Shown one piece after another: positions 829 through 26,025 of a stretch of DNA of 32,694 nucleotides. The DNA is from a virus. Its lineage: Duplodnaviria; Heunggongvirae; Uroviricota; Caudoviricetes. The notes beneath the pieces were generated by a model, which worked only from the letters and a program-made list of their open reading frames with translations, searched no databases and was not told the origin of the DNA. Every line of letters begins with the position of its first letter. Within the stretch, counting starts at the first letter, position 1. The position numbers and the translations under genes are program-made. The stretch is from the IMG/VR virus record IMGVR_UViG_3300002756_000060, positions 1 through 32,694 of that record; one strand, 5' to 3'.

Positions 829-832
<4 letters not shown>
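401..832 (+). CDS. hypothetical protein
   Basis: 143-aa ORF; its stop overlaps the hsdR start (ATGA at 829-832), suggesting translational coupling; no recognisable domain. Confidence 0.45.
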
Positions 833-3960
<3,128 letters not shown>

Positions 3961-4220
3961 TCGTGGCCACAAAAATATTGGTGGCAAAGGCCGAAAATCG
4001 GGCATTCGCTGTGGTTTTCACCGAGGTCTACTTTGCGGATAAAGTGAGCTTTCGCTGGGCACGCGCGAGTGTGCGCTTATCCTAAAATGACTTCGGAGAG
4101 ACTGGGTCGTTTGGAACCGTTCGCTCACTCGGCCTTGTCTGGCGGCCATGGCCCTTCGCCGACGATCATCCGCGCGGAAGACCATCATTGCCGTTTTTTG
4201 AGAATACTACATAATGCACA

Positions 4221-5219
4221 GTGGAGGTGACTTTTTTGGATTCTTACCTGCAGATCGCGCAGACAGTTCTGAGATCGGCCCGCCGCCCTATGGGGGCAAA
4301 GGCCATTCTCGACGTGGCCTATCAAGCGGGAGTGGTGCCCAAGCACTTATACGGAAAGACTCAGCAAAAAACCCTCCAGGCACGGTTGAGCGAGGAAATT
4401 CTTCATCATCGCGAGACATCCCCGTTCTACCGGACCAAGCCAGGGCAGTTTTTCCTGACCGAGTTTCTCGATGCCGATGATGTCCCGGTGGAGTGGAAGA
4501 CGCCCTTTCCCGCCCGTCGTCGGACGCGCGATCTGACGCGTGACAACACGCTGGCCGTGAGGGGGTCATTCCTTGACCGGTGGCGCCGGAGGACGGCGGA
4601 CGCGGACAGTTTCTTCCAAGCGGCGGAGGCCGAGGGTGCGATGGCCTATATGCATCCCAAAGAGATGAGTGCGCAAGGCTACTGCGCCACGTGGACCTTT
4701 GCAATGGTCGTTAAGGACGACTGCACCCTTGCCTATAGGGTTGGGCGCTACCGCGACGATCGCGACAACTACGCCATGCAGCGATCGATCGGCTTCCCCG
4801 GTCCACTTACAGTCGAAGACATGACGCTGTTTTCGCGCGACCGGCTCGGAGCCGAGGACAGCGCCGCGGACGTTCTGATCCAAGATTTGGACCTTTCCTA
4901 TGCGTCCTTCCATGGCCGCGAAAAGCACCTCCCGAAGATCGACCATGTCATGGTCGTGGACGAGGCAGAGTCGCTGAACGTTGTGATCGTGCTGTCGTGG
5001 CAGTGTCCCGAATGGTTCGAGCCGACGACGCGGCGCATGTCGCTCAACGACCCGCACTGGCTCTGCACTTCGATCCGGCATAACGATTTAAATGACTTCG
5101 AACCGTGGAGTTCTAGGATTCTGGCCGCGCGGGCCGCGGATAGGGAGCGCACGACAGTTGGCCACGAAACGGATCACGGAACAGCAAGCGGCCTTTCTCG
5201 TGTCAGAGTTGACGAGTAG
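4221..5219 (+). CDS. HARE-HTH-like DNA-binding domain protein (N-terminal winged-helix; C-terminal ~230 aa of unknown function)
   Basis: N-terminus DSYLQIAQTVLRSARRPMGAKAILDVAYQAGVV...TLQARLSEEILHHRETSPFYRTKPGQFFLTEFL fits the HARE-HTH pattern; GGAGG at 4223-4227 upstream of alternative TTG at 4236, so the exact start (GTG 4221 / TTG 4236) is uncertain. Confidence 0.6.
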   Translation: MEVTFLDSYLQIAQTVLRSARRPMGAKAILDVAYQAGVVPKHLYGKTQQKTLQARLSEEILHHRETSPFYRTKPGQFFLTEFLDADDVPVEWKTPFPARRRTRDLTRDNTLAVRGSFLDRWRRRTADADSFFQAAEAEGAMAYMHPKEMSAQGYCATWTFAMVVKDDCTLAYRVGRYRDDRDNYAMQRSIGFPGPLTVEDMTLFSRDRLGAEDSAADVLIQDLDLSYASFHGREKHLPKIDHVMVVDEAESLNVVIVLSWQCPEWFEPTTRRMSLNDPHWLCTSIRHNDLNDFEPWSSRILAARAADRERTTVGHETDHGTASGLSRVRVDE

Positions 5220-6840
5220 GGAAGATTCTCGCCGTCAGAAGGTCGCTCTCCAAAATCTTAGCCGCCTTTATCGAACCGGCCATCGGTTCGCCCCGGAGAC
5301 TGCGCCGCGCGTTGAGCAGCAGATCGTAGGGCTGACCAACATGAGCCGCGACGAAAAGGTCGTGCGGTGGGGACTGAACACCCTTGCGCAACTTGGCACC
5401 AAGGACAGCGCCGAGAGCGTCGAGTTGGCAATCAAGCGCCACGAAACCAAGCCCGAGATCGTGGCGGCAGGCATCTCGGCCCTAGCCCGCCTGCGCGCGG
5501 GCCAACTGTCCGGCATTGCGGCTTTACGTAGCGTCCCGCCGGAGGTTCAGATGCTCGCGGCTATGCAAACCGTAGATCCCAAGCGGTTAGCCGTCGACGG
5601 GCTCCAAATCGACCTCGATGTGGCCGATCCAGAGATATTGAAGCTGGCTCTGATCGTCGTCGGGCTCGATCGGGATGTGCAGCATCTACTCCATCCCAAG
5701 CACGAAAACGGCGTCATTGTGCGGGAACTCGGGCAACACGACGATCCCATCGTGCGCCAATACGCAGTTTGGGCCGTGATCGAAAATCGTCGACTGTCGA
5801 TCGCCCATCTCGGCATCGATATCAATCGCATCGAAGATCAGCCAGCGAACGTGCAGTCGAAGCTACTGCAACTTGTCTCGTCCTCTCTGCCCGACCTCAA
5901 TCAACGGCATGAAGCAATCTTGCGGGGAGCCGATCTTCCTACAGTCGACGCGCGTGAGGGTCTCGCCAAAGGTCTTCTGCACGCACACTATGACGGCCTT
6001 GCAGAGATAACGCTGGACTGGTTCGATATTGAAGGAAGCGGCCGCGTGAAGTTGCATCTAGCAGAACATTTCGCGCGTTTCGCTGACGACCAGCCAAGTT
6101 ATCGCGTCAAGGCCTTGGAACTCGTCGAGAGCGGCGGCAACCTGCGCGAGCGGGTCCTGCTGGGTGCGGAAGGGACAGCCTTCTTCAGCGACATCAGGAA
6201 AGCGGAAGGGCAAGCATCACTGGGACTCTTTGGTCTCGGGGGAGACGAACAAATGGCACGACTGGAGAAGGCGGTTCGCATCATGAATAGGGAAACTGTG
6301 CTGGTGCTCAATGCGACACCCGACGACTTAGGGCGCATTCGGGCAGACAAGGAGGGCGCGTTGCTTGAGCGCCAATTGGAGACCGTTAAGAACCGGGAGC
6401 GCGATCTTCTCGTCGTTCAAAAGTTCGCGGTCCGCCTGCAGGACATCCAAAAGGAGCTCCTTAACCATCGGCCGAAGATCCTGCACTTCAGCGGGCATGG
6501 TGGCGTCGGCGTGCTGTGTTTTGAGAAGGACGACGGGACAGAGGCCTTGATCGCCGGAGACGTTCTTGCTGAGATTCTGGACGTCTATGGAGAGCTTGAG
6601 TGCCTAGTTCTCCACGCTTGCTACACAGAAAGTGTTGCGCGGGCCTGTGCGAAACACGTTGGCGTCGTAATTGGCTCGACAGATGCTATCGACGACGAAA
6701 CCGCTCCGAAGTTCACCTACGCATTCTATCAGGCCTTGGCGAACGGCCGTCCCTACGAGAACGCATTCAGGGCTGGACAGGTCGAAGTCAGAACCGCTAG
6801 CGAGGTGGCCGCAGCCTGCTACAAGCTGTTCACCCGCTAA
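5092..6840 (+). CDS. HEAT-like repeat protein with C-terminal CHAT (caspase-like) protease domain
   Basis: C-terminus ILHFSGHGG...ECLVLHACYTESVARACAKHVGVVIGSTDAIDDETAPKFTYAFYQALANGRPYENAFRAGQ matches the CHAT His/Cys dyad and FY..L..G tail; N-terminal helical repeats (VVRWGLNTLAQLG, IVRQYAVWAVIEN). Start uncertain: ATG 5092 overlaps the upstream gene by 128 nt; GTG 5200, TTG 5209 and ATG 5341 are alternatives. Confidence 0.7.
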   Translation: MTSNRGVLGFWPRGPRIGSARQLATKRITEQQAAFLVSELTSREDSRRQKVALQNLSRLYRTGHRFAPETAPRVEQQIVGLTNMSRDEKVVRWGLNTLAQLGTKDSAESVELAIKRHETKPEIVAAGISALARLRAGQLSGIAALRSVPPEVQMLAAMQTVDPKRLAVDGLQIDLDVADPEILKLALIVVGLDRDVQHLLHPKHENGVIVRELGQHDDPIVRQYAVWAVIENRRLSIAHLGIDINRIEDQPANVQSKLLQLVSSSLPDLNQRHEAILRGADLPTVDAREGLAKGLLHAHYDGLAEITLDWFDIEGSGRVKLHLAEHFARFADDQPSYRVKALELVESGGNLRERVLLGAEGTAFFSDIRKAEGQASLGLFGLGGDEQMARLEKAVRIMNRETVLVLNATPDDLGRIRADKEGALLERQLETVKNRERDLLVVQKFAVRLQDIQKELLNHRPKILHFSGHGGVGVLCFEKDDGTEALIAGDVLAEILDVYGELECLVLHACYTESVARACAKHVGVVIGSTDAIDDETAPKFTYAFYQALANGRPYENAFRAGQVEVRTASEVAAACYKLFTR

Positions 6841-7136
6841 AAGACTCAGGCTTGTCGATTTCTTCCACTCTGATTTGAGCTGACATGACAGCCGCGTTAT
6901 ATACTTCGCCCGTTCCTAACGACTCATTCTGCTTTTCAGAACGTGGCGGGAAGTAGGTCCAGATCGGATCGAAACGCCAACTTGGAAACCCGAGTTTCCT
7001 TGAACCAAACCTTCGCAGCGCATTCCTTGAAGGTCCCCTTGGGCCGAGAGTGCACCCTCCCATTGGTTCCTCCCTGGCCCCGAACGTATACGGGGGGGCG
7101 CAGCGCGGCAGTTTTCCAGCGTCTGGCCTTTTCACC

Positions 7137-7325
7137 GGGGAATCCAGGCGGAATCCACCTGCCGAGTCATCCTGGAAAAAGCGACTCATTATCAAGGACT
7201 TGCCGAATCACGACCTGGCCAGGGTGGATTCTTTTACCGAATCCAGGGAATCCAGTTCGCGGAAGCCACAGCGCCGGAAGCCAGCCAGCGGAAGCCACCT
7301 GATGGGAAGCCATTGAATCCAGGTG
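7137..7325. repeat. Array of at least 10 short GGAA(T/G)CCA motifs in both orientations
   Basis: ggggaatccagg, cggaatccacc, gggtggattc (inverted), ccgaatccaggg, gggaatccag, cggaagccaca, ccggaagccagcc, gcggaagccacc, gggaagccattg, tgaatccaggtg. Confidence 0.6.
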
Positions 7326-7335
7326 CATTTTTCGT

Positions 7336-7419
7336 TTGACAAAGCTGCCCCCCTTGACTCATACCTTGATAATCGAAGAATGGCGCCCGGAGGAAACTCT
7401 CGCGGGCGTTTTTGTTTTT
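7336..7419 (+). promoter_or_regulatory. Promoter-like TTGACA/TTGACT/GATAAT elements followed by a GC stem (CGCCCG 7384-7389 / CGGGCG 7403-7408) and T-run tttttgttttt; candidate leader attenuator or terminator
   Basis: TTGACA at 7336-7341, TTGACT at 7354-7359, GATAAT at 7368-7373; hairpin plus U-tract; the same arrangement is conserved at 22422-22510. Confidence 0.4.
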
Positions 7420-7505
7420 CCAACATCGCGGACCCTGATGCTGTCGCCGACCGGTGCGGTCGCGCTCTCGCGTCTGTCCGCGTCTCACCACAGCAGAGAG
7501 ACCCC

Positions 7506-8768
7506 ATGGACCTTGTCTTCGCGCCAAGCGAGATCGAGGCGTGGCCGATCGAGCGGCTGCGCCCCTATGCCCGCAATGCCAAGATGCATGGTGAGGACCA
7601 GGTGGCCAAGATCGCCGCCAGCATGGCGAAGTTCGGCTGGACGGTGCCCTGCATGGTGTCCGACGATGGCGAGTTGATTGCCGGGCATGGCCGGGTACTG
7701 GCGGCCGCAATGCTGGGGCTGAAGGATGTGCCGGTGATCCGGCTGGCGCATCTGGACGAGGCCGAGCGGCGGGCCTACCGGATCGCCGACAACAAGCTCA
7801 CGGAACTCGGCGATTGGGACGAGACCGTGCTGCGCGACGAGATCGCGGGGCTGCTGGCCGAGGATTTCGACCTGTCGCTGCTGGGGATCGGCGACGATGA
7901 TCTGGATGCGCTGCTGCGCGACCCCGAAGCGCAGGACGGCGACGGCCCGATCGAGGGCGAGGACGACGTTCCGGAACCGCCGGTCACGCCGGTCTCGGTG
8001 GCGGGCGATCTCTGGCAGCTTGGCGCGCATCGACTGATCTGCGGCGACAGCACTGCGGCGGACGTGGTCGGGCGCCTGCTGGGCGATGTGCGCCCCCTGC
8101 TGATGGTGACCGATCCGCCCTATGGCGTGGAATACGATCCGTCCTGGCGAAACCAGGCGGGCGCCGCCAAGACCAAACGCACCGGCAAGGTGCTCAACGA
8201 TGACCGCGCCGACTGGCGCGAGGCCTGGGCGCTGTTTCCGGGCGACGTCGCCTATGTCTGGCACGGTGCGCTGCATGCCGCCGAGGTGGCGGAGTCGCTG
8301 ATCGTCTCGGGTTTTGCCATCCGCTCGCAGATCATCTGGGCCAAGGACCGGCTGGTGCTCAGCCGAGGCGATTACCACTGGCAGCATGAACCGTGCTGGT
8401 ATGCGGTGCGTACCAAGGGCAAGGGCCACTGGGCCGGCGATCGCAAGCAGACGACGCTGTGGCAAATCGCAAACAAGGATCAGGATGTGGCCACCGTCCA
8501 CGGCACGCAAAAGCCCGTCGAGTGCATGCGCCGCCCGATCCTCAACAACTCGAACGCCGGTCAGGCGGTCTATGAGCCCTTCATGGGATCGGGCACGACG
8601 CTGATCGCGGCGGAAACCACCGAACGGATCTGCTACGGGGTCGAGCTCAACCCGGCCTATGTCGATGTCGCCGTCAAGCGCTGGCAGTCCTTCACCGGCG
8701 CGGAAGCGGTGCTGGCGGACACCGGCGAGAGCTTTGCCAGCCTCAAGGCCAAACGGATGGCTGCATGA
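7506..8768 (+). CDS. ParB-like nuclease domain fused to DNA methyltransferase (beta-class, motif IV DPPY; N6-adenine type predicted)
   Basis: N-terminal ParB-type motif (RPYARNAKMHG...IAGHGRVLAA...YRIADNKLTELG); motif IV LMVTDPPYG; motif I YEPFMGSGTTLIAAE. The ORF is open from 7323 but the start is called at ATG 7506 by alignment with the paralog at 22593. Confidence 0.85.
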   Translation: MDLVFAPSEIEAWPIERLRPYARNAKMHGEDQVAKIAASMAKFGWTVPCMVSDDGELIAGHGRVLAAAMLGLKDVPVIRLAHLDEAERRAYRIADNKLTELGDWDETVLRDEIAGLLAEDFDLSLLGIGDDDLDALLRDPEAQDGDGPIEGEDDVPEPPVTPVSVAGDLWQLGAHRLICGDSTAADVVGRLLGDVRPLLMVTDPPYGVEYDPSWRNQAGAAKTKRTGKVLNDDRADWREAWALFPGDVAYVWHGALHAAEVAESLIVSGFAIRSQIIWAKDRLVLSRGDYHWQHEPCWYAVRTKGKGHWAGDRKQTTLWQIANKDQDVATVHGTQKPVECMRRPILNNSNAGQAVYEPFMGSGTTLIAAETTERICYGVELNPAYVDVAVKRWQSFTGAEAVLADTGESFASLKAKRMAA

Positions 8769-10132
8769 GCATGCATTTGCGTCCCAGCCAGATCGAGTTC
8801 TGGCCGCTGGACCGCCTCAAGCCCTATGCCCGCAACGCCAAGACCCATGACGCCGATCAGGTGGCGCGGATCGCCGCCAGCATGGCCGAGTTCGGCTGGA
8901 CCGTGCCCTGCCTGGTTGGCGACGATGGCGACCTGATCGCGGGCCATGGTCGCGTTCTTGCCGCCGCGCAGCTGGGCCTGGCGGAGGCACCCGTCATCGT
9001 GCTGGGCCATCTGACCGAGGCGCAGCGCCGGGCCTATCGCATCGCCGACAACAAGCTGACCGAGTTGGGCGGCTGGGACGAGGGCCTGCTGCTGGAGGAA
9101 CTGCGGGGGCTTATGGCCGCCGAGTTCGACCTCGGGCTGATCGGCATCCCCGAGGACGAGCTGGATGCCCTGCTGCGCGACGCCGATGACGACAGTGTGC
9201 CCATCGACGACGACACAGCCGATACCATCCCGGAGCCCCCGGCCGAGCCGATCACCCGGCCCGGCGATATCTGGGCGCTGGGCGCGCACCGGCTGATCTG
9301 CGGCGATGCCACCGACGCGGATGTCGTGGCCAGGCTTATGGAGGGCGCGCAGTCGTCGCTGATGTTCACCTCGCCGCCCTACGCCCAGCAGCGCGACTAT
9401 GGCGCGGCCAGGGAGACGGTGGGCGACTGGGACGCGCTGATGCAGGGCGTCTTCGCGGCGGCACCGGTCACCGACGCGGCCCAACTGCTGGTCAATCTCG
9501 GCCTCGTGCATCGCGACGGTGAGTGGCTCCCCTATTGGGAGCGCTGGGTCGAGTGGATGCGCAGCTCTGGCTGGCGGCGCTTCGGCTGGTATGTCTGGGA
9601 TCAGGGGCCGGGCCTGCCCGGCGACTGGAATGGCCGCCTCGCGCCCTCGCACGAGTTCATCTTCCACTTCAACCGCCAACCCCGGAAGCCCAACAAGACG
9701 GTGCCGTCCAAGCACGCGGGCGAAACCTTGGGCGGCGGTGGGCTGCGCGGGGTCAACGGCACCGTCCACGCCAAGCGAGGGGCCGGCAACGCGATCCAGA
9801 GCCATCGCATCCCGGACTCGGTGTTTCGTATCATGCGCCACAAGGGCGGGCTGGGTGCTGCCGGATCGCATCCGGCCGTGTTCCCGGTGGCGCTGGTCGA
9901 GGCCGTGCTGACCGCGTTCAGCGATCCAGGCGACCTGATCTACGAGCCGTTCTGTGGCTCCGGCACGCAGATCGTTGCCGCCGAACGCGCTGGGCGGCGC
10001 TGCTTCGCGATGGAGCTGGATCCGGTCTATTGCGACGTCGCCATGCGGCGATGGGAACTGGCGACGGGGCGGACGGCGCAGTTGGAAAATCGCAACGAGA
10101 CCACCATTGGCAAGGAGACAAAACAGCAATGA
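8765..10132 (+). CDS. ParB-like nuclease domain fused to DNA methyltransferase (beta-class, motif IV SPPY; N4-cytosine type predicted)
   Basis: ParB-type N-terminus (KPYARNAKTHDADQVARIAASMAEFGW...); motif IV LMFTSPPYAQQRDYG; motif I YEPFCGSGTQIVAAE; ATGA overlap with the upstream gene at 8765-8768. Confidence 0.85.
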   Translation: MSMHLRPSQIEFWPLDRLKPYARNAKTHDADQVARIAASMAEFGWTVPCLVGDDGDLIAGHGRVLAAAQLGLAEAPVIVLGHLTEAQRRAYRIADNKLTELGGWDEGLLLEELRGLMAAEFDLGLIGIPEDELDALLRDADDDSVPIDDDTADTIPEPPAEPITRPGDIWALGAHRLICGDATDADVVARLMEGAQSSLMFTSPPYAQQRDYGAARETVGDWDALMQGVFAAAPVTDAAQLLVNLGLVHRDGEWLPYWERWVEWMRSSGWRRFGWYVWDQGPGLPGDWNGRLAPSHEFIFHFNRQPRKPNKTVPSKHAGETLGGGGLRGVNGTVHAKRGAGNAIQSHRIPDSVFRIMRHKGGLGAAGSHPAVFPVALVEAVLTAFSDPGDLIYEPFCGSGTQIVAAERAGRRCFAMELDPVYCDVAMRRWELATGRTAQLENRNETTIGKETKQQ

Positions 10133-10638
10133 TCATCGACACCCCGATCTGGCGAAACGCCGACCTCATTCGGATCATTCCGATCACACGCGCGGACCTG
10201 AACCAGGCCATATCCCGAAACGACTTTCAGCCTGAAAACACACCCAAGCCCGGAAAGGCGCGCTGGTACAGCTGGAGAGACGTGGTGTCGGTTGCTGCCG
10301 CACAGGACTTGCGCAAACTTGGCTTTGGTCCGTCCATCGCATTTAGGCTGGTGCAAAACCACCTGTCACCGTTTCTGCGGGGTAGCATAGACGCCCCGGA
10401 CGATTGCGCAGGAGTGCTTTGGCTTATCCGTCCAAGTGACGACCATCTCAACATTGAGACCCCGTGTGAGTTCCTGCGCCACACCGAATACGAGGCACTC
10501 CTTGTCACGCCAGACGAGAGCGCCTGCATCATCGTGAATATCGGTCGCATTGCAGCACGCGTTCGCGATGACCTGCAGGCGACCGAGACCGCCAAGGTCA
10601 TCCGTGAGGAATTTCAGATCACGGGACCGGTGATGTGA
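10129..10638 (+). CDS. hypothetical protein (169 aa)
   Basis: ATG 10129 overlaps the upstream stop (ATGA); AAGGAGA Shine-Dalgarno at 10112-10118; conserved paralog at 25216-25725. Confidence 0.6.
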   Translation: MIIDTPIWRNADLIRIIPITRADLNQAISRNDFQPENTPKPGKARWYSWRDVVSVAAAQDLRKLGFGPSIAFRLVQNHLSPFLRGSIDAPDDCAGVLWLIRPSDDHLNIETPCEFLRHTEYEALLVTPDESACIIVNIGRIAARVRDDLQATETAKVIREEFQITGPVM

Positions 10639-10844
10639 CCCAATCGCGCGGCATGTCGCTGATCGAGGCCATCACCAATGTCGCGGTGGGCTATGCGCTG
10701 GCCGTCGCCGCGCAGATCGCGGTTTTCCCGTGGTTCGGCCTGCATGCGAGCATTGGCGAGAACCTCACCATCGGCGCCCTGTTCACCGGCATCTCGCTGC
10801 TGCGCAGCTACGCGCTGCGCAGGCTGTTCGAACGCTGGTGGTAA
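10635..10844 (+). CDS. small hydrophobic (probable membrane) protein, 69 aa
   Basis: GTG start overlapping the upstream stop (GTGA); two hydrophobic stretches (VAVGYALAVAAQIAVFPWFG, LTIGALFTGISLL); conserved paralog at 25722-25937. Confidence 0.5.
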   Translation: MTQSRGMSLIEAITNVAVGYALAVAAQIAVFPWFGLHASIGENLTIGALFTGISLLRSYALRRLFERWW

Positions 10845-10853
10845 CGCGCGGGA

Positions 10854-11309
10854 TCAAGCCGTGTCGAGCTTGTACACGGTGCCACGCCCGTCAACTTTCT
10901 CGGCAGTGACGGGCAGGCCCAGCTTCTTCTTGAGCCCGCCCGAGATCAGGCCACGTGCACTATGCGGCTGCCACGAGGTCGCCTCGACAATCTCGGCGAT
11001 GGATGCGCCCTCGGGCCGCTGAATGAGCGCGATGATCTGCGCCTGCTTCGTGCCCGAGCGGATGGCGACGGGTTTTGCGGTGTCCGCAGCTTCGGGCGTC
11101 GGTGCGACATCGGGCTTGGGCTTTCCCTTCCGCGCGCTGGCGACAGCGCTGACCACCACCGGCTCGATCCCGATGGCCTCCAGCCCGGCCTCGGTGGCGA
11201 TCAGCGTGGTGCCATGACCGTCACCGGTCTCGCGCCAGAGCGGCTCGCCGCGGCGGCTGTCGGCATCGACCTCCTCGATCCAGCCATTGGTGATCATGCG
11301 AGTGAACAC
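10854..11309 (-). CDS. DUF3489-like protein, probably a 5'-truncated copy
   Basis: Aligns with the C-terminal ~150 aa of the 193-aa paralog at 26938-27519 (WRETGDGHGTTLIATEAGL...SIAEIVEATSW...GRGTVYKL); start abuts a divergent gene at 11312 with no promoter space. Confidence 0.5.
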   Translation of the reverse strand: MFTRMITNGWIEEVDADSRRGEPLWRETGDGHGTTLIATEAGLEAIGIEPVVVSAVASARKGKPKPDVAPTPEAADTAKPVAIRSGTKQAQIIALIQRPEGASIAEIVEATSWQPHSARGLISGGLKKKLGLPVTAEKVDGRGTVYKLDTA

Positions 11310-11311
11310 CG

Positions 11312-12058
11312 ATGAGCCTGCATCCCGGTACGGATCGCTACAACCCGGCTGGGAACAGCGACTTCACCCGCAAGGCGGAGGCGCTGGCGCTGGGCATCCC
11401 CAACTGGTCGACACCGAAGGCGACAGACGGCGCGAAGGGTGGGCCGGGCCAGAGCTATGGCTCGGGCGGGACGCCACCCCTGCCCGCGCAGGCGGCACAA
11501 TGGCAGACGCCGGTGGCCGACGACCAGATGGATCGGCTGCGTGGCAAGATCAACAGCCGGGGCGAGCCGAAGCTATCGGCACAGGCGCTGCAATGGCCGA
11601 CCCCGGCGGCGCAGAACTGGAAGGGGAGCAGCCCGGCCAGCGTGACGCGGGCGGATGGCAAGAGCCGGATGGATATCCTGCATTACCGGGCGGAGCAGGG
11701 CTTCACCCACCCGGCCCCGGCGATCATGCGGCATGGGCGGCAGTGCTCGCGACACGCCCCGATCTCACGCCCGCTGTGGGCTTCGATGATTGCCTCGCAT
11801 GGGCGCGGCGCATGTCGGCGGCTCCTGAAGGGCCGCTCACGGCGGCGGCTGAACCCGCTCTTCGTCGGATGGTTGATGGGCTGGCCCATCGGTCACGCGC
11901 TCTGCGCCTGCTCGGCAACGGAGTTCATCCTCTGGCAGCAGCGCATGCGTGGCGCGCTCTCGCAGCTGCCCATGGCCTCGGGCCCGTGGATCTGGCGGCC
12001 ATCGGACGAGGCCCAGCGCCCCGCGCAGATGACGCTGTTTGAGGTGTGGTCTGAATGA
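11312..12058 (+). CDS. hypothetical protein with three W-x-TP motifs
   Basis: 248-aa ORF; NWSTPKATDGAKGG, QWQTPVADDQ, QWPTPAAQNWKGSS; stop overlaps the next ATG (ATGA at 12055-12058). Confidence 0.5.
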   Translation: MSLHPGTDRYNPAGNSDFTRKAEALALGIPNWSTPKATDGAKGGPGQSYGSGGTPPLPAQAAQWQTPVADDQMDRLRGKINSRGEPKLSAQALQWPTPAAQNWKGSSPASVTRADGKSRMDILHYRAEQGFTHPAPAIMRHGRQCSRHAPISRPLWASMIASHGRGACRRLLKGRSRRRLNPLFVGWLMGWPIGHALCACSATEFILWQQRMRGALSQLPMASGPWIWRPSDEAQRPAQMTLFEVWSE

Positions 12059-12717
12059 CGATACAAGGAAAGATCGGGCGGCCAGGCGGCCAAAAAACCA
12101 AACGCGCGCTGGGCGTGCAGGCGGCGCTGGAATGGGCCTTTGGCGTGGAAAAGGCACAGCTGGAACTGCCCCTACCGAAGGGCGTGGCCGAGGAAGGCTT
12201 CGGCTTTGGGCTCGAATACGTGCTGCTGCAACGCGCCATACTTGGCTGCAAGATCGACGGCGGCCAACACAAGTTGGGTGGCTATGTGCACGTGGACGCC
12301 GAGGTGATCGCCGCCACCGTCGCGGGCATGCCCGACACCTTGGGTGGTAAGCGCATGGCGATCCGGGTCGCGGAACTGGCACGCGCCGGGCTGACCCCGG
12401 ACTGGATGCCCAGGGCCGTGCCGCGCTGCGTGCCCGTCGATATCAAGCGCAACCGGCATGGTGATCGCGCGGTCAGCGTCGTGGTCGGCACCGCCCGCGC
12501 GCTGATCAGCGGCAAGTGGCGCATCGTCGAGGTCCGCGCCTGCCCCGTCACCTTCACCCCAACCCCACACCAGATCGACGCCGCCCGCCAAGCCTATGAC
12601 GACTGGTGGCAGGCACTGGACTGGGTACGGGATGGGCTTATCGCGGGCGACATGCTGCGGGAGATTGATGTGACAGGGGCGATGCCGAGCGTGCGGCCGT
12701 GGGCTGCAAAGCCTTGA
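12055..12717 (+). CDS. hypothetical protein (220 aa)
   Basis: Translationally coupled to the upstream gene; no recognisable motif. Confidence 0.5.
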   Translation: MTIQGKIGRPGGQKTKRALGVQAALEWAFGVEKAQLELPLPKGVAEEGFGFGLEYVLLQRAILGCKIDGGQHKLGGYVHVDAEVIAATVAGMPDTLGGKRMAIRVAELARAGLTPDWMPRAVPRCVPVDIKRNRHGDRAVSVVVGTARALISGKWRIVEVRACPVTFTPTPHQIDAARQAYDDWWQALDWVRDGLIAGDMLREIDVTGAMPSVRPWAAKP

Positions 12718-12778: not shown

Positions 12779-15652
12779 ATGTTCACCGCTTACCATGGCA
12801 AATATACCGCATATGATCTTACGAAGCTGGCGCCGCCCGGCTCGGACGATCAGTTGTCAATGTCGTTGTTCGATGCATCGGTTGATCTCAATCCTCATCA
12901 GATTGAGGCCGCGATGTTCGCGCTTCAATCGCCGCTGGCTGAAGGCGCGATACTTGCGGATGAGGTCGGCCTCGGCAAAACCATCGAGGCAGGCATTGTC
13001 CTTTGCCAGAAATGGGCTGAGCGAAAACGGAAACTAATCATCATCTGCCCAGCGGCCATTCGACAGCAGTGGGCTGCAGAACTGACGAACAAGTTCAATC
13101 TTCCCGCAGTCGTCATTGACGCTCGGACCTATCGACAGATGAAGATGGAAGGCATTCCATTCCCTTTGTCACAGAAGCGGATCGTCGTGCTATCCTATCA
13201 TTATGCTGCAAAGCTTCAGGATGAGCTTCGGCAAGTCGATTGGGATCTGGTTGTTATCGACGAAGCGCACAAGCTTCGTAACTCGTACCGACCCAGCAAT
13301 CGCATCGGGCAAGCTCTTCAACGAGCAGTCGAAGGCCGCAAAAAGCTCCTGCTGACGGCTACTCCCCTCCAAAACAGCTTGATGGAGATATTCGGGCTTA
13401 CGAACTTCATTGATCCAAACATTTTCGGCGATGCCAACAGCTTCCGGTCGAAGTATGTGAATGCCGGTGGCGATCTGCCCGAGCTTCGCGCAAGGCTCGC
13501 GGATTTCTGCAAGCGCACGCTTCGGAAGCAGGTTCTCGAGTATGTCAAATATACTCAGCGCCGTGCCATCACGCAGCCATTCTCGCCGGCGGAGAACGAG
13601 CAGGCGCTGTATGACGGCATTACGCGCTTCCTACAACGAGAGGACACCTATGCAATACCCTCTCAACAGCGCCATCTAACCGTTCTTATCCTGCGGAAGC
13701 TTCTCGCTTCGTCATCACAGGCCATCGCAGGGACGCTTGAGACCCTACGCGCCCGCTTGGTAGCCCTGCAGAAAGGGGAACCGGTAAAGGATGATCTGGC
13801 GGAGGTGATTTCATTCGAGAACGAGCTCGAAGAAGAAATTCTCGACGAATGGGATGATGACGATGCGCAAGACCCCACAGGGGCCGAGCAAATCGACTTC
13901 GCCAAGCTTCGCCTGGAAATCGACGATATTTCAGGTCTGATCCAGCTTGCACATTCGATCCAGATCGATACTAAGTCCAAAGCGCTGCTACAGGCTCTCG
14001 AGATAGGCTTTTCGGAGCAGGAGCGGATGGGCGCACAGAGAAAAGCCCTGATCTTCACAGAGTCGCGCCGCACCCAAGACTATCTCCGCGATTTCCTCGC
14101 GCGCTACGGTTACGCCAATCAAATTGTGACCTTCAGTGGCACTAATTCCGACCGCAAGGCACAGGAAATTTACGAGCGCTGGCTTACCGATCCGAAGAGC
14201 GCCGAGCAGATTACAGGATCGCGCGCCATCGATGTTCGTGCTGCACTGATAGAAGAATTCCGCGACAATGCCTCGATCATGATCGCAACCGAGGCCGCCG
14301 CCGAGGGTGTCAACCTGCAATTCTGCTCGCAGGTCATCAACTACGACCTTCCGTGGAACCCGCAGAGGATCGAACAGCGCATCGGACGCTGCCATCGCTA
14401 TGGGCAGACGCATGATGTGATCGTCGTGAACTTCCTGAACGAACGCAACGATGCAGATAAACGGGTTCACGCGCTTCTAACCGAGAAGTTCAATCTGTTC
14501 GATGGTGTATTTGGGGCTTCAGACGAGGTCTTGGGAACGATTGAGTCCGGCGTCGACTTCGAAAAGCGCATTCTGGCGATTTACCAGGACTGCCGCACTC
14601 CGGAGGCCATCGCCGCAGCTTTTGATGAACTTCAGACCCAGCTCGAGGAACAAATTCGGAGCCGAATGGAGGATACAAGGCGGGCCCTGCTGGAGAACTT
14701 CGACGAGGATGTCCACGCCCGCCTGAAGCTGCGCCTCGCTGACGCCCGCGAACAGTTGGACCGTGTCGGGCGCCGGTTTTGGGATCTGACCACTGCTATC
14801 CTCGCCGACAAGGCCAAATTCGATGAACCAAATCTGGCCTTCGACCTTCTGGCCCCGCCGACCCGCGACCTGCGACCGGGCCGCTATCACCTGATCTCGC
14901 GGAACTCGGCCGCAGACCCGGCCAAGAACGAACACGGCTATTTCCTCTACCGGCTGTCGCACCCTCTTGGCGAGCATGTCATTGAATCGGCCAAGGCCGC
15001 TGACACGCCAGTGGCCGAATTGCGGTTCGATGTGACCAATCACCCCACACGCGTGGCCATCGTCGAGGCGCTGAAAGGGCGGCGCGGCTGGCTGACGCTG
15101 CGCAAACTTGCGGTGACGACCTTCGAGACCGAGGAATACCTGCTATTCTCGGGCATCGACGACAATGGTCGCTCCATCGACCACGAAGCCTGCGCCAAGC
15201 TGTTCTCGGTCGGTGCTGGCGTTCACCCCATCGACATGCCCGCCCCTGCCATCGCCGACCTCCTTCAGGCTGAGGCCGAGCAGCATGCCAAAGCCACCTT
15301 GAACCGGTCGCTGGATGCCAACAACAAGCACTTTGCCTCGGCCCGTGAAAGGCTGGAGCGCTGGGCTGAGGACAAGGTCTACGCGGCAGAGAAGGCGCTG
15401 AAGGACACCAAGGAACAGATCAAGGGGGTGCGTCGCGAGGCGCGGGCAGCTACCACACTCGAAGAAGAAGCCGCCATCCAAGCCAAACTGCAGGAACTGG
15501 AACGTCGCCAGCGCAAGCAGCGGCAGGAAATCTTCAACCAGGAAGACGAAGTGGCCGACAAGCGGGACGAGTTGATCGCCAACCTTCAAAAGCGGCTCAG
15601 CCGTGGCCACTCGGTTGAATCGCTGTTTACGGTCCGCTGGGCCGTCGTGTAG
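12779..15652 (+). CDS. SNF2-family (SF2) helicase/ATPase
   Basis: Motif I LADEVGLGKTIEAG; motif II LVVIDEAHKLRN; motif III LLLTATPLQNSLMEIFGL; C-terminal helicase motifs ALIFTESRRT, IMIATEAAAEGVNLQ, DLPWNPQRIEQRIGRCHRYGQ; AT-richer codon usage than neighbours. Confidence 0.9.
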   Translation: MFTAYHGKYTAYDLTKLAPPGSDDQLSMSLFDASVDLNPHQIEAAMFALQSPLAEGAILADEVGLGKTIEAGIVLCQKWAERKRKLIIICPAAIRQQWAAELTNKFNLPAVVIDARTYRQMKMEGIPFPLSQKRIVVLSYHYAAKLQDELRQVDWDLVVIDEAHKLRNSYRPSNRIGQALQRAVEGRKKLLLTATPLQNSLMEIFGLTNFIDPNIFGDANSFRSKYVNAGGDLPELRARLADFCKRTLRKQVLEYVKYTQRRAITQPFSPAENEQALYDGITRFLQREDTYAIPSQQRHLTVLILRKLLASSSQAIAGTLETLRARLVALQKGEPVKDDLAEVISFENELEEEILDEWDDDDAQDPTGAEQIDFAKLRLEIDDISGLIQLAHSIQIDTKSKALLQALEIGFSEQERMGAQRKALIFTESRRTQDYLRDFLARYGYANQIVTFSGTNSDRKAQEIYERWLTDPKSAEQITGSRAIDVRAALIEEFRDNASIMIATEAAAEGVNLQFCSQVINYDLPWNPQRIEQRIGRCHRYGQTHDVIVVNFLNERNDADKRVHALLTEKFNLFDGVFGASDEVLGTIESGVDFEKRILAIYQDCRTPEAIAAAFDELQTQLEEQIRSRMEDTRRALLENFDEDVHARLKLRLADAREQLDRVGRRFWDLTTAILADKAKFDEPNLAFDLLAPPTRDLRPGRYHLISRNSAADPAKNEHGYFLYRLSHPLGEHVIESAKAADTPVAELRFDVTNHPTRVAIVEALKGRRGWLTLRKLAVTTFETEEYLLFSGIDDNGRSIDHEACAKLFSVGAGVHPIDMPAPAIADLLQAEAEQHAKATLNRSLDANNKHFASARERLERWAEDKVYAAEKALKDTKEQIKGVRREARAATTLEEEAAIQAKLQELERRQRKQRQEIFNQEDEVADKRDELIANLQKRLSRGHSVESLFTVRWAVV

Positions 15653-15685
15653 ACCAGCCGAGTAACATCAAGGAAAACAAGAACA

Positions 15686-18600
15686 ATGAGCAATTTTGAC
15701 GCCCTCGTTGCCAAGCTGCGCGAAATCTTCCAGATCGACCGGCCTGACCTCGATTTTGGCGTCTACCGTATCCTCAACGCCCGCGCGGGGGAAATCGAGG
15801 ATTACCTGTCCAAGCGTCTGAAGGCGCGGGTGGCCGAAGCACTGGCTGCCGGTGCTGCGGCCAATACCGAAACGCTGAAGGCCGCGATTGAGAAAGCGCG
15901 CGAAGCTGCTGAGGCCGCAGGGTACAATTCAGACGAAGCTCCGAGAGTTCTGAGCCTCCAGAAGGAACTTGCAGCCGCCAGCGGGGCCACGTCGGAGCAT
16001 GAAAATCAGGTCTTCTCGCACCTGTTGACCTTCTTCTCGCGCTACTACGACAAGGGCGATTTCATCAGCCAGCGCCGGTACAAGGGTGATACCTATGCCA
16101 TCCCCTATTCCGGGGAAGAGGTCGTGCTGCACTGGGCGAACCGCGATCAGTATTACATCAAAAGCGGAGAATCCTTCTCGAACTTCAGCTTCAAGCTGGA
16201 TGACGGTCGACTTGTGCATTTCCGCCTTGTCGCTGCCGATACGGCCAAAGACAACCGCAAGGATAACGACAAGGAGCGCCGCTTCGTTCTGGCCACCGAG
16301 CGCACGGTCACGCGCCTTGACGAGGAGGGCGAGGGTTTTGAAGAAACCATCCGTCCGATCGAGGAAGAGGATGGCGCGCTGGTCATCCGGTTCGACTTTG
16401 CAGCACAGCCCAAAGGGACCAAGCAAGAAAAACTGGTTGAGGCGGCGGTGGAAACCATTCTGGACAGCGAGACTTTCAAATCGAGATGGCTGGAACTGAC
16501 CAACCGCGCGCCGACGGAAAAGAAACCGCAGCGCACCTTGCTGGAAAAGCACCTGACGACCTACACGCAAAAGAACACCGCCGATTACTTCATTCACAAG
16601 GATCTGGATGGTTTTCTGCGGCGCGAACTGGATTTCTACATCAAGAACGAGGTGATGAACCTGGACGATGTGCAGGAGGCCGGGGCCTTTGCCGCCATCG
16701 AAAGAAACCTACGGATGATCCAATGCCTGCGGGCCATCGCTCTGGACCTGATTACCTTTCTGGCCAGCATCGAGAATCTCCAGAAAAAGCTATGGCTGAA
16801 AAAGAAATTCGTGGTGGCGGCGCAGTATTGCGTGACGCTGGACCGGGTGCCGGAGGCGCTTTACCCGGCTATCGCGGCGAACCCCGCGCAATGGGCGCAG
16901 TGGCATGATCTGGGGATGCGGGCATCCGCGGCGCCGGGGACGGTGGAGGATCTGAAAGCCGCGCCCTTCCTGATGGTGGACACCGCGCTCTTTGATGCGG
17001 GTTTCCGGGCTGACCTGTTGAAGGCGATCCCCGATCTGGATGCTAGCCTCGACGGGCTGCTGGTTCATGGGGACAATTTTCAGGCGCTGAACCTTTTGCA
17101 GGATCGATACCGGGAAAAGGTCAAATCAATCTATATCGACCCGCCTTACAACACTGACGCAGGACCGATCAGTTACAAGAACGGCTACCGGAGTTCGTCG
17201 TGGGTTGCCATGATGCACGACCGCGTGAAACTCGGGCGTGAGCTATTGCCTCTCGACGGGTTGCTCACCGCCACGATCGATGACTATCAGTACCGTGAAT
17301 TGCACTTCGCCATTGAAGAGGTTTTTGGCGCTCAAAACCTCGCAGGTACCGTTGTAATCCGAATGAACCCGTCTGGCCGCCCGCTCCCACAAGGCTTCGC
17401 ACAGTCCCACGAATACGCAATCGTCGCGAAGCGGTCAGACTTAGCTCAGATCGAGAACTTACCGAGAAGCGAGAAGCAGAACGCCAGATATAAGCACCGC
17501 GATGACGACGGTCAGATGTACATGTGGGAACTGTTCAGAAAGCGCGGATCGAATTCCGAAAGAACTGACCGGCCTTCGCTGTATTATCCGATCTATCTCC
17601 GGGGTGAGGACTTTCGGGTTCCCCGAATGACTTATGATCCTGATCGCAAGGATTGGGATATTCATGAAGAACCGGATACCGACGAAAGCGTCATCTACCC
17701 TATTGACGACAACGGAACCTTGCGCACGTGGCGTGGCTCACCGGATGATTTGATCGATAATCCAAGCAACTATCGTGTGAAGATCGAGGACAGCAAAGTC
17801 ACGGTCTACTACAAGTTTCGCCCCAACTCTGAGGGTGTGCTTCCGCTCACCAACTGGATCGATGCCAAATACTCCGCAACGGAGCATGGAACGGGATATC
17901 TCAAGAACTTCTTTTCGGAATACAACGTTTTCTCCTATCCGAAGTCGATCTACGCGGTTGAAGACTGCATCAGGGTTGGTGGCGCAACGGCCAATGCAAC
18001 CGTCCTCGACTATTTTGCAGGATCGGGCACGACTGGACACGCAGTCATAAACTTGAACCGGTCCGACCAAGGGTCTCGAAAGTACATCTTGGCCGAGCAA
18101 GGCGCTTACTTCGAAACTGTCATTAAGCCACGCTTAAAGAAGGCAGTGTTTTCTGCTGATTGGTCAGAGGGTAAACCCACCGCCCCCGAAACCGGCATCA
18201 GCCATGCCTTCAAGGTACTCAAGATCGAGGGCTATGAGGACACGCTGAACAATCTTGATCTGAAGCGTTCGGAGGCGCAGGCCAGTCTTCTGGAACGGTT
18301 CAGCGCCGACAAGCGCGACGACTATTTGATGCGCTACATGCTGGATGTCGAGGGACGCGGCTCGCTCCTGTCCATCTCGGATTTCCGCAAGCCCTTTGAC
18401 TACTCGCTCAAGGTCGCCGTCGACAGCGCCGGGGCCTGGGAGGAGCGCAAGGTCGATCTGGTCGAGACCTTCAACTACCTGATCGGCCTGACCGTCCGCC
18501 ATATCGACATCCAGCTTCGCCAAGGCTTCGCCACGGTCGAGGGCTGGTTGCCAACGGGTGAGCGGACCCTGATCCTGTGGCGCGACTGCGATAAAATCGG

Positions 18601-18805
18601 CTATGAGGAATTGACGCGCCTGTGCGACAAACTGGCGATTAACCCGGCCGACAGCGAATACGACGTGGTCTACATCAACGGCGACCACAATATCCCCTCG
18701 GTGGTGGAAACGACCGAGGAAGAGGGCAGCGTTATCAAGAAGCTGATGCTGCGCCAGATCGAACCCGCCTTCCTCGATGCGATGTTCAACGTGGATGACG
18801 TCTGA
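15686..18805 (+). CDS. Type III Mod-like beta-class DNA methyltransferase with ~480-aa N-terminal extension
   Basis: LLVHGDNFQALNLLQDRYREKVKSIYIDPPYNT (motif IV) precedes VLDYFAGSGTTGHAV (motif I); AAGGAAA Shine-Dalgarno at 15670-15676; 1039 aa. Confidence 0.85.
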   Translation: MSNFDALVAKLREIFQIDRPDLDFGVYRILNARAGEIEDYLSKRLKARVAEALAAGAAANTETLKAAIEKAREAAEAAGYNSDEAPRVLSLQKELAAASGATSEHENQVFSHLLTFFSRYYDKGDFISQRRYKGDTYAIPYSGEEVVLHWANRDQYYIKSGESFSNFSFKLDDGRLVHFRLVAADTAKDNRKDNDKERRFVLATERTVTRLDEEGEGFEETIRPIEEEDGALVIRFDFAAQPKGTKQEKLVEAAVETILDSETFKSRWLELTNRAPTEKKPQRTLLEKHLTTYTQKNTADYFIHKDLDGFLRRELDFYIKNEVMNLDDVQEAGAFAAIERNLRMIQCLRAIALDLITFLASIENLQKKLWLKKKFVVAAQYCVTLDRVPEALYPAIAANPAQWAQWHDLGMRASAAPGTVEDLKAAPFLMVDTALFDAGFRADLLKAIPDLDASLDGLLVHGDNFQALNLLQDRYREKVKSIYIDPPYNTDAGPISYKNGYRSSSWVAMMHDRVKLGRELLPLDGLLTATIDDYQYRELHFAIEEVFGAQNLAGTVVIRMNPSGRPLPQGFAQSHEYAIVAKRSDLAQIENLPRSEKQNARYKHRDDDGQMYMWELFRKRGSNSERTDRPSLYYPIYLRGEDFRVPRMTYDPDRKDWDIHEEPDTDESVIYPIDDNGTLRTWRGSPDDLIDNPSNYRVKIEDSKVTVYYKFRPNSEGVLPLTNWIDAKYSATEHGTGYLKNFFSEYNVFSYPKSIYAVEDCIRVGGATANATVLDYFAGSGTTGHAVINLNRSDQGSRKYILAEQGAYFETVIKPRLKKAVFSADWSEGKPTAPETGISHAFKVLKIEGYEDTLNNLDLKRSEAQASLLERFSADKRDDYLMRYMLDVEGRGSLLSISDFRKPFDYSLKVAVDSAGAWEERKVDLVETFNYLIGLTVRHIDIQLRQGFATVEGWLPTGERTLILWRDCDKIGYEELTRLCDKLAINPADSEYDVVYINGDHNIPSVVETTEEEGSVIKKLMLRQIEPAFLDAMFNVDDV

Positions 18806-21800: not shown

Positions 21801-22122
21801 CTATCCTGACTTCCTGCTCTGGCTGGTGGACGACAAAACTGGCAAGCAGTGGCTATCATTCATCGATCCTAAGGGCATTCGAAACCTGAACATTTCGGAC
21901 CCGAAGTTTGGCTTGTATAGGGAAATCAAGCAGATCGAGAACCAGCTGGGTGACGGCATGATCAGCCTAAACGCCTTCATCCTGTCCGTGACGACCTTCA
22001 GCGACCTGCTAAATGTCACAGGCTCTACCACGAAATCGGAGCTCGAGGACCGAAATGTCCTATTCATGGGCGACGGGGGGCCGACATATCTTGATAAGCT
22101 GCTGGCCAGAGCCCTCACCTGA
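18805..22122 (+). CDS. Res-like ATPase/helicase with candidate C-terminal PD-(D/E)xK nuclease
   Basis: Walker A FWNATGSGKTLLLHV; Walker B-type LVLVDEGHRG; C-terminal YPDFLLWL...FIDPKG; start overlaps the Mod-like stop (TGATG), so co-operonic; 1105 aa. Confidence 0.75.
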   Translation: MARAAKKKRTFHHELVLNRWMLSHFYGDGLMTLKSRLGDDRFEGIDDDGQTKFFHELTRNLFNMDRVTEAELRRYDLNIVAYWQKITHRRNAATGELLTMKYFQYLSLLFTEIYLDWYFNRRQDLLDGLNAQMAAYRKEDGAEPFRDYSADDLNKLAFWNATGSGKTLLLHVNILQYLHYFQAGNGNLFPDRIILLTPNEGLSRQHLEEFRESGINAHVFDKNQTGSLFKGWVDVIEVTKLADEMGDKTVATGAFEGNNLVLVDEGHRGTGSAGGVWMARRAALVKGGFAFEYSATFSQSVAKGATVAKAEEDILKAKAKRLFDKTLKQLDDTERAQLQLTNEDRARARIDGIREAYAKAVLIDYSYKYFYADGYGKESLILNLDDKGYDNHGDLYFTACLLSFYQQLWLWDTHRDKIRDFNIEKPLWVFVGNTVAGEDSDILEVIKFLAWFLNHPSEATTWIADLVADKARLLDPKGNDVFAGRFSPLMQRDAATIYDDILKRLFNADARQRLKLVNLKNSKGELALRVGSFDPFGLINIGDDSGFFKNAEDSSDFDTEADDFGTGLFGTINQKDSKLNVLIGSRKFTEGWSSWRVSTMGLLNMGQGEGSQIIQLFGRGVRLKGRGMSLKRSLPAERPKGTHMERLETLNIFGVRANYMATFKDYLKEEGITPSDEIIQLDFPTRTNLPSGTRLKTLKLKDGYKDNQIKGFKRVHYPTLYEVPAEFAGKIKPPHVLLDLYPRVEAITTTANATAGAPDKRNRGKLSKAAIACFDWDAVFTAVQEYKLLKSWSNLKVDRERLYQFCLGDNSWYTLLIPQAELEVSDFSDVLRQQDIMLQLLTDYTDRFYQGLKAAYEGKFYDVAPVTEDSGSIIKLYQFEIENTDVGLEYKAKLEVLSALVASGKIGEASNWNAPHMVAISFGQHLYYPLLSPIKDAVVPLKMRPLAIGEPSEVQFVEDVMAYYDSPSGKERLKGFSLYLLRNADNRAKGLGFALAGNFYPDFLLWLVDDKTGKQWLSFIDPKGIRNLNISDPKFGLYREIKQIENQLGDGMISLNAFILSVTTFSDLLNVTGSTTKSELEDRNVLFMGDGGPTYLDKLLARALT

Positions 22123-22124
22123 GC

Positions 22125-22150
22125 CGGGGCAAGTTGAGCTCCCCCCCGGC
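22125..22150 (+). terminator. Weak GC hairpin immediately after the Res-like gene stop
   Basis: GCCGGGG (22125-22131) pairs with CCCCGGC about 13 nt downstream; no clear U-tract. Confidence 0.2.
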
Positions 22151-22225
22151 ATGGTTCCTCCCGGGCGCGATCCGTATACGGGGGGGCTGAGCGCGGCATT
22201 TCGCTAGCGACTGGCTTTTTCACCG

Positions 22226-22427
22226 GGGAATCCACTTGGAAGCCACCCCGGCGGCCCTGCCGGAAATTGTGACTCAATTTCAGAACCTTACCCGACAGCA
22301 TCGGTGGCCAGGGTGGATTCCTTTTGGAAGCCAGGGAATCCACTTGGTGGGTTCTTTTGGCCAGAAAAGCCACCCTCAGGCCAGATCGGCAGAACACCTT
22401 GATTCCAAGCCACAAAATGGATTGACA
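22226..22427. repeat. Array of GGAA(T/G)CCA motifs in both orientations (paralog of 7137-7325)
   Basis: gggaatccacttggaagccacc occurs twice; ggtggccagggtggattcc (inverted); gattccaagccac. Confidence 0.6.
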
Positions 22428-22510
22428 TTTCTAGCCCCCTTGACGTACCCCTTGATTGTCGAAGAGTTGCGCCCGGAGGAAACCCCTCGCGGGCGCTTTT
22501 GCTTTCCCCC
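22422..22510 (+). promoter_or_regulatory. Promoter-like TTGACA/TTGACG/TTGATT elements followed by a GC stem (GCGCCCG 22469-22475 / CGGGCGC 22490-22496) and T-rich tract
   Basis: Same arrangement as 7336-7419; the conserved leader CATCGCGGACCCTGA follows in both copies. Confidence 0.4.
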
Positions 22511-26010: not shown

Positions 26011-26025
26011 GAAATCCAGTAGACG

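Follow-up and report, generated by a model that had tools for sequence, protein, structure and literature searches.

The viral sequence IMGVR_UViG_3300002756_000060 (32,694 nucleotides; in the following the window, i.e. the whole stretch of DNA that was analysed) is part of a Rhodobacterales prophage, and all its substantial open reading frames (ORFs) lie on the + strand. Two of its intergenic regions, elements A and B, each harbour a dense array of the octamer GGAAKCCA (K = G or T) and each precede two tandem genes for ParB-domain methyltransferases (ParB-MTases), as an initial annotation of the window had described. The genes for the small and the large terminase subunit, terS and terL, which overlap (29554-32104), are located further downstream (Table 1). 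The two elements align over ~450 bp with 73% identity, from ~75 bp 5' of the first octamer to the start codon of the methyltransferase gene.

Table 1. Positions of the two elements, their subsites and the neighbouring genes in the window. A slash marks the predicted cut.
Feature	Position	Strand	Remarks
Intergenic element A	6841-7505		
5' block, copy A	7065-7138	+	G/C-rich, 5' of the array
Start of 5' block, copy A	7065-7073	+	GGTTCCTCC; ~18-26 bp upstream of the predicted cut
Predicted cosN region, copy A	7086-7109	+	GTATA/CGGGGGGGCGCAGCGCGGC
Octamers O1 and O2, copy A	7139-7157	+	GGAATCCA twice, 11 bp apart; ~48 bp from the predicted cut
IHF-consensus site, copy A	7190-7202	+	TATCAAGGACTTG, matches WATCARNNNNTTR; between O2 and the inverted octamer
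Inverted octamer, copy A	7225-7232	-	AGAATCCA on the - strand, GGTGGATTC on the + strand; equivalent of λ R2
Seven more direct octamers, copy A	7238-7321	+	Starts at 7238, 7247, 7261, 7276, 7290, 7305, 7314
TTGACA, CTTGAC and TTGAT boxes, copy A	7336-7381	+	CTTGAC-N17-AAGAAT, sigma-70-like promoter candidate
Hairpin and T-run, copy A	7383-7419	+	GC-rich, intrinsic-terminator-like; between the array and the ParB-MTase gene
Two tandem ParB-MTase genes, module A	7506-10132	+	7506-8768, motif IV DPPY; 8765-10132, motif IV SPPY
Intergenic element B	22123-22592		
5' block, copy B	22153-22226	+	G/C-rich; GGTTCCTCC at 22153-22161; predicted cosN region within 22153-22197
Octamers O1 and O2, copy B	22227-22245	+	GGAATCCA, GGAAGCCA
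IHF-like site, copy B	22278-22290	+	TTTCAGAACCTTA, relaxed consensus; variant present in 4 elements
Inverted octamer, copy B	22314-22321	-	Exact match
Distal octamers, copy B	22326-22414	+	22326, 22335; then degenerate AAAAGCCA at 22365 and TTGATTCC at 22399
TTGAC boxes, hairpin and T-run, copy B	22422-22506	+	Boxes 22422-22467; hairpin plus T-run 22469-22506
Two tandem ParB-MTase genes, module B	22593-25219	+	
terS	29554-30123	+	phrog_57, E 4.5e-28; N-terminal helix-turn-helix; proposed octamer reader
terL	30071-32104	+	phrog_15, E 2e-265; λ gpA type; proposed nicking enzyme
HsdR (type I restriction R subunit), HARE-HTH protein, CHAT protein	829-6840	+	Upstream of copy A
Small ORFs	10132-12717		
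SNF2 helicase, large methyltransferase (1039 aa), helicase (1105 aa)	12779-22122	+	Upstream of copy B
NYN protein	26026-26712	+	

The octamer cluster that had been annotated at 7137-7325 is real. Array A contains seven exact copies between 7139 and 7312, all on the + strand, and if one mismatch is permitted three more are found (7225-7232, which is inverted, 7238-7245 and 7314-7321), i.e. ten sites within 183 bp (7139-7321), with the distal direct octamers being spaced by 9 bp and then by 14-15 bp. The annotated number of at least ten copies in less than 200 bp holds with this mismatch allowed, and only one copy represents the second orientation. The similar array annotated at 22226-22427 has five exact octamers, at 22227, 22238, 22314 (inverted), 22326 and 22335 (22227-22342), its distal copies being degenerate, and the 19-mer GGAATCCACTTGGAAGCCA, described as repeated twice, shares only its first 13 nt, GGAATCCACTTGG, with the second copy. 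All 12 exact octamers of the window lie within the two arrays, whereas dinucleotide-preserving shuffles of the window contain 2.55 on average and at most 7. The motif is not evenly spread over the sequence. A related motif noted at the start of the NYN gene is a single GAAATCCA at 26011 and corresponds to chance level (111 matches of the relaxed pattern vs. 99 expected).

The element is widespread. Across Rhodobacterales genomes and proviruses, pattern scans yielded more than 150 copies, with close homologues in a plasmid-borne Roseicitreum prophage and on a Paracoccus megaplasmid, and blastn searches with the element gave no match to isolated phages and, among plasmids, two prophage-bearing replicons and no others. 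In 154 non-redundant related loci, 909 octamers fall into 50.8 kb of element (17.9/kb) and 69 into 1.22 Mb outside (0.057/kb), which corresponds to a ~300-fold higher density within the element. When 148 copies are aligned, the octamers show almost no variation, whereas the intervening bases drift. Of 678 sites, 675 have G or T at position 5, and A or C are almost never found there; the T/G ratio is ~50:50 at the first four sites, so that a given site shows T/G transversions between homologues. The inverted octamer always has the GATTC form, A being found at the variable position in 111 of 126 inverted 7-mers. Octamer spacings of 9, 11, 14 and 15 bp recur across loci, as does a distance of ~88 bp across the central spacer. 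ParB-MTase genes are the next genes after the element in 157 of 161 loci and terS and terL follow downstream (median 4.7-5.2 kb), and the genes on the 5' side vary between loci and often encode defence-type cargo. Judged by this pattern of conservation, the array is a real and strongly selected array of predicted protein-binding sites, and the general idea of a clustered protein-binding site, put forward in the initial annotation, is well supported. A text search of a literature library for GGAATCCA returned primers only.

The octamer-pair pattern, and solely this pattern, also retrieved 11-bp tandem (T)GGAATCCA arrays in unrelated viral contigs of lower GC content (L133, 3847-3920; L160, ~7979-8019; L202, ~4621; L219, ~3348; L152, ~3124), some of which are followed by GAATGGAA-type repeats. 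These look like separate iteron-type or terminase-type arrays.

The 5' block preceding the octamers is homologous to defined ends of phage genomes. By TerL, the closest isolated phages are RcBaka and RcKemmy (Rhodobacter capsulatus RcC cluster), the TerL of RcBaka being 60.6% identical to that of the window, and for both phages 11-base 5' overhangs have been determined from read termini (PMC8601537). Their records begin with CGGGGCGGAAGCGCG...CCCTAGCG, the start of RcBaka being CGGGGCGGAAGCGCGTTAAGTCCCTAGCG. In RcBaka, three GGTTTCCAC repeats are located ~45 bp from the record start and are followed by gene 1, which codes for a ParB-like protein with 45% identity to the ParB domain of the window, and terS and terL lie 2.2 kb from the genome end. 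If the right and left ends of RcBaka are joined, the joined sequence aligns with the 5' block of the window, and the join, GTATA/CGGGGGGGC, corresponds to 7090/7091 and 22178/22179. The reported end of RcKemmy lies 2 nt further along than that of RcBaka, and the predicted cut at 7090/7091 is placed within ~2 nt. A profile of the 5' block devoid of octamers matches the RcBaka join (E 6.9e-6), with the match spanning the join, as well as the Acidithiobacillus phage AcaML1 (E 2.1e-5). The block starts with GGTTCCTCC, which is near-invariant in the 148 elements and has counterparts in RcBaka (AGGTTCTTCC), AcaML1 (GGGTCCTCCC) and Ralstonia phage YO164_3 (GGGTCCTTCC); from its position it is a candidate cosQ-like subsite.

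Similar arrangements are found in more distant phages. In AcaML1 the homologous block is followed by a GGTTTCCACC array and directly by gp23, which contains further repeats. Although annotated as hypothetical, gp23 is a terS homologue (phrog_57, E 2.6e-31; 31% identity to terS of the window), and two ParB-MTases are located 3' of it. The order in this phage matches the λ/N15 arrangement of cosN, cosB and terS (PMC4669245). Of gp23 and gp33 of AcaML1 (L244, JX507079; 1924-2457 and 7681-8142), gp33, which is annotated as gpNu1, shows no similarity to this terS family. In Pseudomonas phage Haddon the record end is followed by a CTAGCG palindrome, the array and then terS, and no ParB gene intervenes. 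Aurantimonas phage AmM-1 (L242, 3886-3925) carries four GGTTGACC repeats with 9-bp spacing just 5' of a ParB-MTase gene, and a G-rich block similar to the cos block lies ahead of them; in the database record this genome has been opened at the start codon of terS, so that the physical ends are not displayed. In the window, the region just 5' of terS (29361-29553) has neither a repeat array nor a G-rich block, and in MW202748, which has a different terminase type, no array is found upstream of the ParB-MTase gene.

Octamer 2 and the inverted octamer are separated by a ~65-bp spacer, which contains a match to the consensus of IHF. WATCAR-N4-TTR comprises the only conserved bases of this spacer, and TATCAAGGACTTG is the sole match to the strict consensus in the window. 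In 118 of 122 elements, as compared to 0.02 expected, CAR-N4-TTR and the inverted octamer are separated by a fixed 32-34 nt, with the N4 bases being variable. The element is hence made up of two direct octamers, a predicted IHF site, one inverted octamer and up to seven more direct octamers, a layout that mirrors the complex λ-type cosB, R3-I1-R2-R1, where the bend introduced by IHF allows TerS to dock to R3 and to the oppositely oriented R2 (PMC4669245). O1/O2 occupy the location equivalent to R3, and this position is conserved, with T/G swaps among homologues.

The repeat sequence changes together with terS. In five lineages with homologous terS genes the repeat and the start of the recognition helix in the N-terminal helix-turn-helix of TerS co-vary: LSRGAVQKARK is found with GGAAKCCA (window and Roseicitreum), VSHTAVxKAIK with GGTTTCCAC (RcBaka, RcKemmy and the distant AcaML1), VSDAAVRKAIA with GGTTCGCAC (Ralstonia YO164_3), VSKQAIGKMIK with GGTTGACC (AmM-1), and WSRAYVSKLKS with GGTTAAC (Haddon). 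In RcBaka the C-terminal part of TerS is closer to that of the window, the helix-turn-helix matches that of AcaML1, and so does the repeat, which the two phages share. From this co-variation we infer that the octamers may be the binding sites of TerS.

Taken together, the enrichment and conservation pattern of the octamers, the homology of the 5' block to defined phage ends, the IHF consensus and the terS/repeat co-variation suggest that each array is probably the cosB of a λ-type cos site, i.e. a cosQ/cosN followed by a multi-site cosB bound by TerS and IHF. A cosB-like array is a classical kind of site, and the sequence evidence for it is strong. According to this model the helix-turn-helix domains of TerS would dock to the GGAAKCCA octamers as 'R' sequences and host IHF would bind WATCAR-N4-TTR between octamer 2 and the inverted octamer. 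The resulting bend would bring octamers 1-2 and the oppositely oriented octamer together, comparable to R3-I1-R2 of λ, and the octamers at 14-15 bp spacing may wrap around or stabilise a TerS oligomer by additional contacts. TerL would thereby be placed to nick the G-rich cosN ~48 bp upstream, near 7090/7091 and 22178/22179, and packaging would run rightwards through the ParB-MTase genes.

The elements are also rich in GANTC, the target of CcrM. The window contains 42 of these sites as compared to 162 expected, 15 of the 42 being located within the arrays (7140-7360 and 22228-22405), and across the 154 loci the density amounts to 15.7/kb inside and 1.17/kb outside the element, the surrounding genome being 3-4 times depleted. 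The elements hold 798 GANTC sites, 341 of them outside octamers, and GANTC is embedded in about a third of the octamers, in the invariant inverted octamer and in some spacer bases. The only variable octamer base is a toggle between T (methylatable) and G (not methylatable). In view of this toggle and the embedded sites, packaging initiation could depend on the methylation state of the array, and we speculate, though we consider it rather doubtful, that cos is methylation-gated, with the ParB domains recruiting the downstream methyltransferases to the terminase-cos complex so that the DNA would be modified while being packaged. GANTC is absent from the arrays of RcBaka, AcaML1, Haddon and the Ralstonia phage, and sensitivity to methylation would thus be a lineage-specific addition, analogous to P1 pac. 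As to the enzymes, the paired ParB-MTases differ in motif IV, DPPY being typical of N6-adenine and SPPY of N4-cytosine enzymes, and for the ParB-MTases described in the Paracoccus virome paper no specificity is given. A CcrM-like specificity is not supported, as the closest solved relatives are of the DpnA/M1.HpyAVI type and the N4C type and the match to CcrM is confined to a C-terminal motif.

Between the array and the ParB-MTase gene both copies carry TTGAC boxes and a hairpin with a T-run. The hairpin at 7383-7419 has a dG of -18.2 kcal/mol (z -2.45), variation at stem position 8 and at the bulge base maintains or improves pairing, and Ralstonia phage YO164_3 (L248, ~965-1000) has a comparable hairpin with T-run at the equivalent location. 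A terminator scan missed this conserved hairpin because the loop exceeds the limit of the scanner, a promoter scan gave one weak promoter-like match, in copy A, and a scan of the whole window against Rfam at gathering thresholds found no family. The TTGAC boxes are kept in canonical elements; the entire module of boxes and hairpin is missing from several variants (L157, L162, L192 and L227) and from RcBaka, and is thus treated as a separate transcription-control module. With low confidence we suggest that hairpin and boxes insulate the late genes from read-through from the upstream cargo, the hairpin perhaps acting as terminator in combination with a local promoter. A divergent small gene on the - strand, starting from GGAGGAACCATG, was rejected as its ATG is not conserved. 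A long-range RNA structure in which GGTTCCTCC pairs with the hairpin loop was dropped given the prophage context and the end homology, as were a CsrA-sponge RNA, attP and a single-stranded-DNA promoter of a conjugative leading region.

Several points weigh against the assignment of the arrays as cosB or leave it incomplete. The physical ends are known for related phages and for no member of this prophage family, and no related contig starts or ends exactly at the predicted cut, the nearest starts being located 6-14 nt upstream; these look like assembly breaks. The terS/repeat co-variation comprises just five classes. A single-sequence AlphaFold model of TerS alone reached a pLDDT of 45, which does not suffice to confirm a winged-helix fold, and searching the PDB sequences with the terS profile gave chance-level matches (a spurious ubiquitin; Cro at E ~0.7). 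The arrays of this family always adjoin ParB-domain genes. They also end just 5' of promoter-like boxes, which may point to a role in transcription. Two direct copies of cos 15 kb apart would be awkward for a single functional phage and would interfere with packaging, and one of the modules may be a remnant. Moreover, λ has three 16-bp R sequences as compared to ~ten 8-bp sites here, the later ones 14-15 bp apart, and the λ cosB adjoins terS, whereas here ~7 kb with two ParB-MTase genes and small ORFs lie in between; a separation of cos and terS, by 2.2 kb, is likewise found in RcBaka. Finally, the strict T/G toggle, the clustering of GANTC and the presence of two cos-like copies 15 kb apart are features that a cosB function does not account for.

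The initial annotation had proposed a parS-like centromere, iterons or an operator array, each of which fits worse than a terminase recognition site. If the array was a parS-like site, the ParB-MTases would bind the octamers for autoregulation or would load there and spread so that the phage DNA is methylated. This would account for the array lying directly 5' of their genes in 157 of 161 loci, including the variants devoid of promoter boxes and hairpin (L157, L162, L192 and L227), and in RcBaka, too, the repeats are directly followed by a ParB-like gene. Phage ParB proteins have been proposed to guide the modification of DNA while it is packaged (PMC6536676), and for one phage ParB activation of a thymine dioxygenase is described (PMC13229309). 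However, the ParB-MTases consist of an N-terminal ParB/Srx domain (residues ~8-150), an acidic linker and an N6/N4 methyltransferase, with neither a ParB-type helix-turn-helix nor a separate DNA-binding domain detected in them, and no ParA-type match was found among the window ORFs scanned. The octamer is asymmetric whereas parS is palindromic, the repeat sequence follows the helix-turn-helix of TerS and not the presence of a ParB gene, the Haddon array, which has the same architecture, adjoins terS with no ParB gene there, and the homology of the 5' block to genome ends would be left unaccounted for. We therefore regard a parS-like function as unlikely, although a secondary role of the ParB domains at a cosB-type array would fit the earlier proposals (PMC6536676; PMC13229309).

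An operator or activator array, at which a phage regulator bound to the octamers would switch the CTTGAC-N17-AAGAAT promoter ahead of the operon for ParB-MTases and packaging, appears similarly improbable. Such a function would agree with the array ending 15-30 bp upstream of the conserved TTGAC boxes and with the element marking the boundary between variable cargo and late genes, and an IHF site between upstream binding sites and a promoter is a common arrangement. Variants and relatives, however, keep the array and the 5' block in the absence of TTGAC boxes and hairpin, no candidate regulator is conserved beside the element, and neither the end homology nor the co-variation with terS would be accounted for. 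It is even harder to reconcile the data with a replication origin, which we consider very improbable. The octamers would then be iterons or DnaA-box-like sites (ATCCAC core), accompanied by the IHF site, the AT-richer spacer and the GANTC sites, and direct repeats, IHF and clustered methylation sites do resemble plasmid and chromosomal origins, with a GANTC density 13 times higher inside the element than outside, 44% A+T in the spacer as compared to 39% in the element overall and, by inspection, 6 of 9 bases shared between GGAATCCAC and TTATCCACA. On the other hand, a spacer with only 44% A+T is not an AT-rich unwinding element, the flanking genes encode cargo/defence proteins and methyltransferases with no initiator, helicase or primase gene adjacent, and replication-type genes are found several kb upstream, beyond the variable cargo. 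Furthermore, the repeat varies with terS, and the homologous site in RcBaka and RcKemmy is the physical genome end.

The two elements are parts of larger modules (7065-11315 and 22153-27400), each composed of a cos-like site and ParB-MTases, which are in direct orientation at a distance of 15,088 bp and share 73-84% identity. The genes that follow module A (11312-12717; phrog_27243 and phrog_9306) sit upstream of the element in other loci, suggesting a mosaic or what is left of a second phage, joined to a complete late region. Defence-type cargo that varies between loci is located directly 5' of each cos-like element, which suggests a cargo hotspot at the genome end.

Assignment of the arrays as cosB would give a function to a conserved non-coding element that is widespread, occurring in more than 100 Rhodobacterales genomes and proviruses, and would predict the start of the virion DNA of these prophages, aiding both the calling of prophage boundaries and the orientation of the genomes. 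It would place the variable defence cargo at the genome end beside cos and make the ParB-domain modification genes the first genes after cos, and the idea that ParB directs modification during packaging would gain a specific DNA site. The five natural pairings of terS helix-turn-helix and repeat may also serve as a system for studying packaging specificity.

Among known systems, ParB-parS, including P1 parS with its central IHF site, likewise combines a cluster of short repeats and an IHF site beside a gene for a ParB fold, but differs from the present elements, which come with no ParA, with no ParB-type DNA-binding domain detected and with asymmetric repeats that co-vary with terS. In P1 pac the cleavage region lies between clusters of short repeats that carry a site for adenine methylation, cleavage is enhanced by IHF and the phage encodes a methyltransferase. 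P1 employs headful packaging by PacA/PacB, every hexamer has a GATC, and Dam methylation gates cleavage. The resemblance includes the repeat cluster carrying methylation sites, as GANTC is present in many octamers although the genome is otherwise depleted of this site, whereas PacA/PacB are unrelated, packaging in P1 is headful, and only T-form octamers carry GANTC here. The ends of RcBaka and RcKemmy share with the window the homologous end-join, the ParB-like first gene and the repeat array ~45 bp from the end, but their repeat is GGTTTCCAC in three or four copies, with no inverted copy and no IHF consensus noted, their ParB is not fused to a methyltransferase and they have no hairpin with T-run; the repeats themselves are not discussed in the original description (PMC8601537). 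With λ cos (cosQ-cosN-cosB; gpNu1/gpA), from which the window differs by the promoter-like module and the terminator-like hairpin after the array and where cos cutting is a prediction for the window, it has in common a gpA-type TerL together with a TerS with N-terminal helix-turn-helix, a G/C-rich cut region, repeated, here predicted, TerS sites ~50 bp further on towards the terminase genes, and an IHF site, here a consensus match, between oppositely oriented repeats, with more direct repeats beyond (PMC4669245).

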